Position numbers and translations under genes: made by a program. A stretch of 64,000 nt of DNA. Source: Escherichia coli (GTDB taxonomy: Bacteria; Pseudomonadota; Gammaproteobacteria; Enterobacterales; Enterobacteriaceae). The notes below the pieces were generated by a model that saw nothing but the letters and a program-made list of their open reading frames with translations, ran no database searches and was not told the DNA's origin. Each line of letters opens with the position of its first letter. Position 1 is the first letter of the stretch. Shown piece after piece: positions 24,220 to 24,774 of this stretch. The stretch is from NCBI RefSeq assembly GCF_050920415.1, contig NZ_CP169309.1. One strand, 5' to 3'.

Positions 24220-24269
24220 GGTGGATCAGGCTAGCGGACCGATCGCGCTCAATTTTGCGGCTTGCAACC

Positions 24270-24412
24270 GGTTTGTAGGACGGATAAAACGTTCAAGCTG
24301 CATCTGGCGATACGGTGCACAATGCCTGATGCGACGCTGTCGCGTCTTATCATGCCTACGAGTTCGATGCCCTGTGTAGGCCAGATAAGGCGTTTACGCC
24401 GCATCCGGCACG
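24270..24412. repeat. Cluster of REP/BIME palindromic elements
   Basis: Three REP-like units (GTAGGACGGATAAAACG..., GCCTGATGCGACGCTGTCGCGTCTTATCATGCCTAC, GTAGGCCAGATAAGGCGTTTACGCCGCATCCGGCA). Confidence 0.7.
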
Positions 24413-24433
24413 CAAACGTAATGGAATGCACAA

Positions 24434-24742
24434 ATGGATTATTTAATTCCAGTTTGTCTGGTATTGCTGGGATTGCTCGCGATCTTCACCCCCAATTGGC
24501 TGATCCCTGTTTTTATCGTCGTGGGGGGATGGCTGGGGGTACTTGCCTGGGGTTGGCTCTGGCTAATGATTTTTTTACCTTTACTTAACGGTGTCGGGCT
24601 TGCTTATGCCCTGTGGTTGATGTTCAAAAGGCCATCCATAGCATCCCGCTTGGTTGCTGCATGCTGTGTTATCTCCGTCATTCTGATGTTAGCGCTTTAT
24701 TATGCTTTCCTGACTATGCCGCCGTTCCCGCCTCAGCACTAA
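24434..24742 (+). CDS. Hypothetical small, Trp-rich membrane protein (102 aa, ~3 predicted TM segments)
   Basis: Intergenic ORF MDYLIPVCLVLLGLLAIFTPNWLIPVFIVVGGWLGVLAWGWLWLMIFLPLLNG...; no strong SD, so coding status is uncertain. Confidence 0.35.
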   Translation: MDYLIPVCLVLLGLLAIFTPNWLIPVFIVVGGWLGVLAWGWLWLMIFLPLLNGVGLAYALWLMFKRPSIASRLVAACCVISVILMLALYYAFLTMPPFPPQH

Positions 24743-24774
24743 GCCTGATAGCCAGAGGCTATCAGGCAACACTT

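Follow-up and report, generated by a model that had tools for sequence, protein, structure and literature searches.

A probable small membrane-protein gene in the variable tusA-zntA spacer of Escherichia

Main finding

The open reading frame (ORF) at 24434-24742 of the window, by which we mean the whole 64,000-nucleotide stretch of Escherichia coli DNA analysed here, is very probably a real gene for a membrane protein, as judged from its substitution pattern and its relatives. It encodes 102 residues, is already annotated as a hypothetical protein and is in no described family. The best inference is that the gene is dispensable and weakly constrained. It appears to belong to a tiny undescribed family of 83-, 84- and 102-residue proteins whose genes lie directly downstream of tusA and nowhere else. 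A doubtful ORF has thus become a well-supported gene, though an uncharacterised and accessory one, and nothing about it indicates an unusual mechanism.

Layout of the tusA-zntA spacer

The gene coordinates place exactly 555 bp (24220-24774) between the convergent tusA (+) and zntA (-) genes of the window, in agreement with an earlier note on this DNA, which had put the distance at about 555 bp. The same note was right that the genes lie closer together in K-12: the spacer measures 101 bp in K-12 DH1 and in O157:H7 EDL933, neither of which has the ORF. KMS2001 and ATCC 11775, the type strain of E. coli, have an intermediate 268 bp. The features of the window allele are as follows.

23974-24219, + strand: tusA (sulfurtransferase TusA, 81 residues; the window allele ends ...RKSG)
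24220-24275, no strand: post-tusA spacer, from which the HPGQ element is mostly missing in the window allele
24276-24308, + strand: REP1, degenerate, with 3 mismatches to the REP pattern (pattern scan; naRNA4 model)
24324-24359, - strand: REP2, the inverted copy GCCTGATGCGACGCTGTCGCGTCTTATCATGCCTAC, forming a BIME-like pair with REP1
24377-24409, + strand: REP3, with 0 mismatches to the REP pattern (pattern scan)
24423-24426, + strand: weak Shine-Dalgarno core GGAA, within a conserved GGAATG motif, 7 nt 5' of the ATG
24434-24742, + strand: putative gene for the 102-residue small membrane protein (RefSeq WP_000385061.1, 'hypothetical protein'; UniProt A0A0L7AHN6)
24570-24576, + strand: T7 homopolymer within the ORF (codons 46-48), the frameshift site of truncated 61-residue variants
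24743-24767, no strand: perfect hairpin (11-bp stem, 3-nt loop) between the ORF and zntA stops
24775-26973, - strand: zntA (Zn/Cd/Pb P-type ATPase, 732 residues), convergent with the 102-residue ORF

The K-12 spacer is made up of a G-rich HPGQ repeat (extracted locus L003, 618-718), and HPGQ (hairpin/G-quadruplex) repeat no. 40 is the element described between zntA and tusA in K-12 (PMC5100583). The ORF-positive allele of O145:H28 retains the HPGQ element in this spacer; in the window allele most of the element is gone (24220-24250 region). On the other side of tusA, in the divergent yhhQ-tusA spacer, a terminator-like hairpin followed by T7 lies at 23934-23949 (+), ~25 nt 5' of the tusA start.

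The spacer had been said to hold three REP-like palindromes, and all three were located by a pattern scan together with Rfam. REP1 (+) and the inverted REP2 are neighbours in opposite orientation, the arrangement expected of a BIME, and REP3 is kept directly 5' of the ORF in all Escherichia alleles examined. The REP pattern matches five places in the window (two in the spacer, the others at 418, 34975 and 40886) and none in shuffled sequence; a REP query matched a median of six places per genome. The REP-derived Rfam model naRNA4 (RF02564) matches 24278-24356 at 53.5 bits (E = 2.5e-8), below its gathering score of 59.5, and this segment is therefore counted as a REP match only and not as a member of the naRNA4 family. 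The three palindromes are ordinary REPs: they fit the pattern found elsewhere in the window as well as the naRNA4 model and, apart from the degeneracy of REP1 and the sub-threshold naRNA4 score, show nothing unusual.

The 102-residue product and its predicted fold

The exact protein sequence (A0A0L7AHN6) is present on 410 contigs. Its earlier description as a very hydrophobic, Trp-rich protein with several transmembrane segments is borne out by a GRAVY of 1.47, 6 Trp and 22 Leu, only five charged or His residues, and three predicted helices. All of its basic residues (K65, R66 and R72) fall in its single hydrophilic loop, FKRPSxxSR. An AlphaFold model built from 27 sequences (pLDDT 82, pTM 0.65) contains helices at residues 4-18, 21-65 and 69-94. 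The middle helix, at 45 residues, is implausibly long for one span and is probably bent near P49/N52/G53, so that the model is consistent with three or four membrane spans. Membrane-length hydrophobic helices with positive charges limited to one loop are the sequence features of small bacterial inner-membrane proteins, the broad class under which the predicted product is best filed.

Neither the 102-residue protein nor its two paralogues matched anything in Pfam, NCBIfam, PADLOC, PHROGs or PDB sequence searches, and a Foldseek search of the PDB with the AlphaFold model yielded generic helical bundles only (best E-value 1.6). Two marginal matches were dismissed as noise, an NCBIfam antiporter subunit (E = 0.007; 17 bits, where the cutoff is 95) and CapC (E = 0.22). 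Type I toxins are under ~60 residues, with one membrane helix and an overlapping antisense RNA; a small hydrophobic toxin of this kind was rejected for a product of 102 residues with three predicted helices, in a region where Rfam gave no small RNA except the REP model. A defence-system component was likewise rejected, with no match in PADLOC or the other libraries searched.

Signals around the reading frame

The earlier note had found no clear Shine-Dalgarno sequence. The site is indeed weak, but a GGAA core is present 7 nt 5' of the start codon, and every allele and paralogue retains it. The motif GGAATG stands 7-8 nt before the ATG of the 83-, 84- and 102-residue genes alike, with a fuller AAGGAA in the paralogues against GGAA here. 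The ORF begins 214 bp after tusA, with the three REP hairpins in between. A promoter scan of 23700-24900 found no sigma-70-like site, and consensus scanning predicted neither a promoter-like nor a terminator-like site between tusA and the ORF. One candidate picked out by eye, TTTACG-N17-CGTAAT in or after REP3, was rejected as a weak promoter whose -10 hexamer lacks the key A at position 2.

The hairpin at 24743-24767 (-21.1 kcal/mol, z -3.7) starts directly after the ORF stop and ends 7 nt from the zntA stop, with tails AACACUUUUACUU on the + strand and UUAGUGCU on the - strand. A terminator consensus scan made no call here; the hairpin is likely a shared bidirectional 3'-end structure of the ORF and zntA. 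The E. whittamii hairpin (locus L010) has the same two stem arms but an inverted loop, TCT in place of AGA.

Coding gene or chance reading frame

Length alone does not lift the ORF beyond chance, since the window also has spurious ORFs of 101-160 residues antisense to zntA and one of 108 residues in another frame of the spacer. It is conservation, on the comparisons below, that sets the 102-residue frame above them. Pairwise Nei-Gojobori dN/dS lies between 0.16 and 0.58, and for the most divergent pairs Fisher tests that set nonsynonymous against synonymous substitutions yield p = 0.0004-0.008. Variable sites are enriched at the third codon position (21/15/36 at positions 1/2/3, p = 0.008). 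Pooled dN/dS is lowest in the annotated frame (+1, about 0.37) and ranges from 0.74 to 1.69 in the four frames that do not share its wobble position; the wobble-sharing antisense frame has a pooled value of 0.40, yet contains 4-6 stops. Indels in full-length copies are all in-frame and give 99- and 105-residue variants. The window and E. albertii copies of the ORF agree at 89.5% of their nucleotides, with a dS of 0.47-0.68 in the flanking genes, which argues for constraint, because unconstrained DNA would have diverged much further and gained indels.

These patterns weigh against reading the stretch as an untranslated chance ORF or a conserved non-coding element, for instance a 3' UTR structure of zntA or tusA. 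Such a reading could draw on the ease with which ORFs of at least 100 residues arise in the window, on frame +3 of the same stretch, which has just 0-1 stops, and on the weak Shine-Dalgarno core and the lack of a predicted promoter. It would leave unexplained the frame-specific substitutions, the exclusively in-frame indels of full-length copies and the 32-39% protein identity to two paralogues at the same genomic position. An alternative-frame ORF of 108 residues overlapping the 102-residue one (24262-24588) varies in length among relatives, where it reaches only 55-62 residues. We regard this untranslated reading as the least probable of those considered here. The more specific suggestion that the ORF arose by chance in repeat-derived DNA also falls away: the ORF is not repeat-derived, for it overlaps no REP, its frame is conserved, and 24 nt separate the end of REP3 from the ATG.

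Frameshifts in close relatives had been named in advance as the observation that would speak against a gene. In general they are not seen: among 60 evenly spaced ORF-positive E. coli genomes, every copy is in frame and annotated as a CDS; 59 span exactly 309 nt and the remaining one carries an in-frame 9-nt duplication. Frameshifted variants do occur in a minority of records, at T7 (24570-24576), G6 (24523-24528) and G5 (24535-24539), and these homopolymer frameshifts produce truncated forms of 61 and 49-51 residues in both E. coli and E. albertii. They reflect either recurrent inactivation or sequencing error.

Constraint on the ORF is relaxed relative to its neighbours: omega is 0.03-0.07 for tusA and zntA against 0.3-0.58 for the ORF, a dN/dS 5-10 times higher. 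This raises the alternative of a decaying relic, a once functional gene of the tusA operon that in E. coli has since fallen silent, or almost so, and is on the way to being lost, with no present role. Several further observations would suit such a relic, namely the loss of the gene from ~94% of E. coli (317 genomes ORF-positive, 526 with REPs only, the rest with the short spacer), a Shine-Dalgarno core weaker than that of the paralogues, the insertion of REPs between tusA and the ORF, and the reading frames broken at runs of G or T in several lineages. However, the frame is kept in all 60 sampled E. coli copies, E. coli alleles at a dS of ~0.19 from each other have accumulated no stop codon or frameshift, and comparisons confined to E. 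coli retain the codon-position bias with an omega of 0.16-0.33. A relic is unlikely, though it is the alternative we would take most seriously; a weakly constrained gene that is still coding fits these comparisons better.

A small family linked to tusA

When 1.84 billion representative proteins were searched exhaustively with a profile, the family members recovered were one full-length Escherichia cluster, its fragments and a single further protein, P0039, and none beyond these. A 360-residue protein, P0040 (E = 2.4e-4), was dismissed as a low-complexity repeat protein. P0039 has 83 residues, is 37% identical to the 102-residue protein over its whole length and shares N- and C-terminal motifs with it, including the terminal FPAQH. 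Its gene lies 36 bp 3' of tusA on a short contig whose TusA clusters at 90% or above with that of Superficieibacter. In the Superficieibacter loci with a TusA of the same 90% cluster (L021-L024, 3001-3380), a GntR/aminotransferase gene follows tusA after 133 bp and no small ORF is present, suggesting that the family is patchy outside Escherichia too.

The second paralogue, P0042, has 84 residues; its gene is situated 27 bp after tusA and upstream of the 102-residue gene in one Escherichia lineage. It is intact, with T9, in loci L016-L020 (L016, 5001-5255) and frameshifted, with T8, in the GTDB representative SCPM-O-B-8794 (L007, 2575-2828), where the change could be a pseudogene, an assembly error or slippage. 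Alignment of the window's post-tusA spacer with the 84-residue gene gave no clear trace of a remnant. The two paralogues are 32-39% identical to the 102-residue protein, and seven residues are invariant across the family (M1, P25, G55, R72, L73, S81 and L88). No Cys, His or acidic residue is conserved across it. Within the 102-residue protein, residues 2-20 resemble residues 21-39 and the N-termini of the paralogues (7/19 identical, shuffle p ~0.02), so that its extra length probably stems from a duplicated first helix. The conserved linkage of the 102-residue gene is with tusA rather than with zntA.

Distribution and history of the locus

Of 5426 complete E. coli genomes, 317 (5.8%) carry the ORF, as a single copy that is always chromosomal and between tusA and zntA. 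Three allele groups can be told apart: 83 of these genomes have the ORF at >=99% identity, 181 have it at 95-99% and 53 at 90-95%; divergent E. coli alleles are 91.6% identical. A survey of one genome per GTDB species added five genomes to that of the window with an intact 102-codon ORF: Escherichia sp. E1V33, SCPM-O-B-8794, the E. albertii type strain, Escherichia sp. MOD1-EC7003 and E. whittamii. The small ORF is absent from E. fergusonii and from ~94% of complete E. coli genomes. A strain-specific protein, one of the options first raised for it, is hence not what is seen: the gene is intact in at least six Escherichia species-level lineages as well as in 5.8% of complete E. coli. Across the genus, the stretch between tusA and zntA varies, with five or more gene arrangements; those recorded, including one from a Superficieibacter-like contig, are listed here.

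tusA, 83-residue gene, convergent 162-residue gene: Superficieibacter-like contig
tusA, 102-residue gene, convergent 164-165-residue gene, zntA: E. albertii and Escherichia sp. MOD1-EC7003
tusA, convergent 188-residue gene, zntA, no small ORF: E. fergusonii
tusA, 84-residue gene, 102-residue gene, zntA: one Escherichia lineage
tusA, 102-residue gene, zntA: the window, E. whittamii, E1V33 and 5.8% of E. coli
tusA, REPs, zntA (REP-only): 526 E. coli genomes
tusA, HPGQ element, zntA (short spacer): the remaining E. coli, including K-12

The REP-only allele retains a short match to the region of the ORF stop codon and left hairpin arm, a remnant suggesting that the ORF was deleted from this allele and not inserted into the others. 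The K-12 state is most likely a derived deletion too, because the gene spans at least six lineages and 5.8% of E. coli. Read most simply, these comparisons point to a gene that early Escherichia already had and that was then repeatedly lost.

The flanking genes are themselves polymorphic. K-12 tusA is 92.3% identical to that of the window and 94.7% to that of EDL933, and the 3' end of zntA is 93.5% identical between K-12 and the window. Divergence within E. coli at tusA and the zntA 3' end (23974-24219 and 24775-25375) is about the distance between K-12 and E. albertii. These divergent flanks suggest old alleles or between-species recombination at tusA-zntA. The ORF alleles of O145:H28 and Escherichia sp. 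E1V33 share 98.1% identity, which, together with the polymorphic flanks, makes recombination between lineages likely.

Patchy presence and absence, deep allelic divergence (91.6% between E. coli alleles) and a variable site that also gains and loses a 162-188-residue gene would be in keeping with an orphan immunity-type membrane protein, kept by some lineages against a membrane-targeting bacteriocin or a contact-dependent toxin. The immunity proteins of pore-forming colicins and microcins resemble the 102-residue protein in size and polytopic character. Against such a role, no toxin gene adjoins the ORF, the middle of the protein shows strong conservation and no diversification, and no match was found to any immunity, defence or phage family searched; for colicin or microcin immunity in particular, nothing in Pfam matched at E <= 10, and all 317 genomes carry the ORF at the same chromosomal, syntenic site between tusA and zntA. 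We consider an immunity function highly improbable, and a tusA-linked accessory membrane protein remains the preferred reading.

Proposed working and possible partners

On the preferred reading, 24434-24742 would encode a small polytopic inner-membrane protein of the tusA-downstream family. Transcripts begun at the tusA promoter would run on through the REPs into the ORF, as suggested by the lack of a promoter-like or terminator-like site in between and by the paralogues, which lie too close to tusA to have promoters of their own. Ribosomes would initiate at the conserved ATG from the weak GGAA Shine-Dalgarno core, the REP hairpins and this weak site together possibly holding expression low, and the shared hairpin at 24743-24767 would end both convergent transcripts. 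By the positive-inside rule, the basic loop at residues 65-72 would face the cytoplasm. The protein may then pack against a larger membrane protein and modulate it, a low-level and dispensable activity. With no conserved Cys, His or acidic residue and no library match, helix packing of this kind is the most likely mode of action, although we put it forward only tentatively and by analogy.

Small inner-membrane proteins that modulate larger membrane proteins are established in E. coli and Salmonella, among them KdpF with KdpABC, MgtS and MgtR with MgtA, AcrZ with AcrB, and CydX with CydAB. The 102-residue protein is like them in being small and nearly all hydrophobic, without enzymatic motifs, encoded within or beside the operon of an unrelated protein and easily overlooked. 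In contrast to them, it is longer, with three or four predicted helices instead of one, has no sequence similarity to any of them and is a predicted protein. A second comparison is offered by YeeD-YeeE, a TusA-like protein with a membrane partner in thiosulfate uptake, YeeE being a large multi-span transporter with essential cysteines. Here, too, a tusA-family gene is followed by a membrane-protein gene on the same strand, after a gap of 27-36 bp in the paralogues, but the 102-residue family has only 83-102 residues, conserves no cysteine across its paralogues and has no sequence relationship to YeeE.

The linkage to tusA allows a bolder, speculative proposal, which we hold to be rather improbable, slightly more so than a decaying relic: that the TusA-linked family of 83-, 84- and 102-residue proteins works with the TusA sulfur relay or with the adjacent metal pump ZntA, and that the spacer polymorphism is old, trans-species and maintained by selection instead of reflecting decay. 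If an interaction with TusA or ZntA were true, the protein would be a new membrane component in sulfur trafficking or zinc export; if not, it would be one more dispensable orphan membrane protein. Either way, K-12 and EDL933, the two standard references checked, lack the gene, and surveys of small proteins in K-12 would thus have missed it.

The neighbouring 162-188-residue gene

A gene of 162-188 residues, labelled 'DUF2004 domain-containing' by NCBI, converges on the small gene in E. albertii, MOD1-EC7003 and the Superficieibacter-like contig, and stands alone between tusA and zntA in E. fergusonii. Its coordinates in the extracted loci are as follows.

L008, 3369-3866, - strand: 'DUF2004' gene
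L009, 3378-3872, - strand: 'DUF2004' gene
L011, 688-1176, - strand: 'DUF2004' gene
L025, 2501-3067: 'DUF2004' gene

No mention of DUF2004 was found in the literature searched. The 165-residue protein carrying this label has no Pfam hit at E <= 10 and only noise among PDB sequence hits. Only four protein clusters were recovered for the labelled gene, and the AlphaFold model of the 165-residue form is poor (pLDDT 47). In E. fergusonii CP031282.1, zntA is called as two genes of 468 and 218 residues (locus L025, 264-2464), which suggests a frameshift or pseudogene in that assembly.
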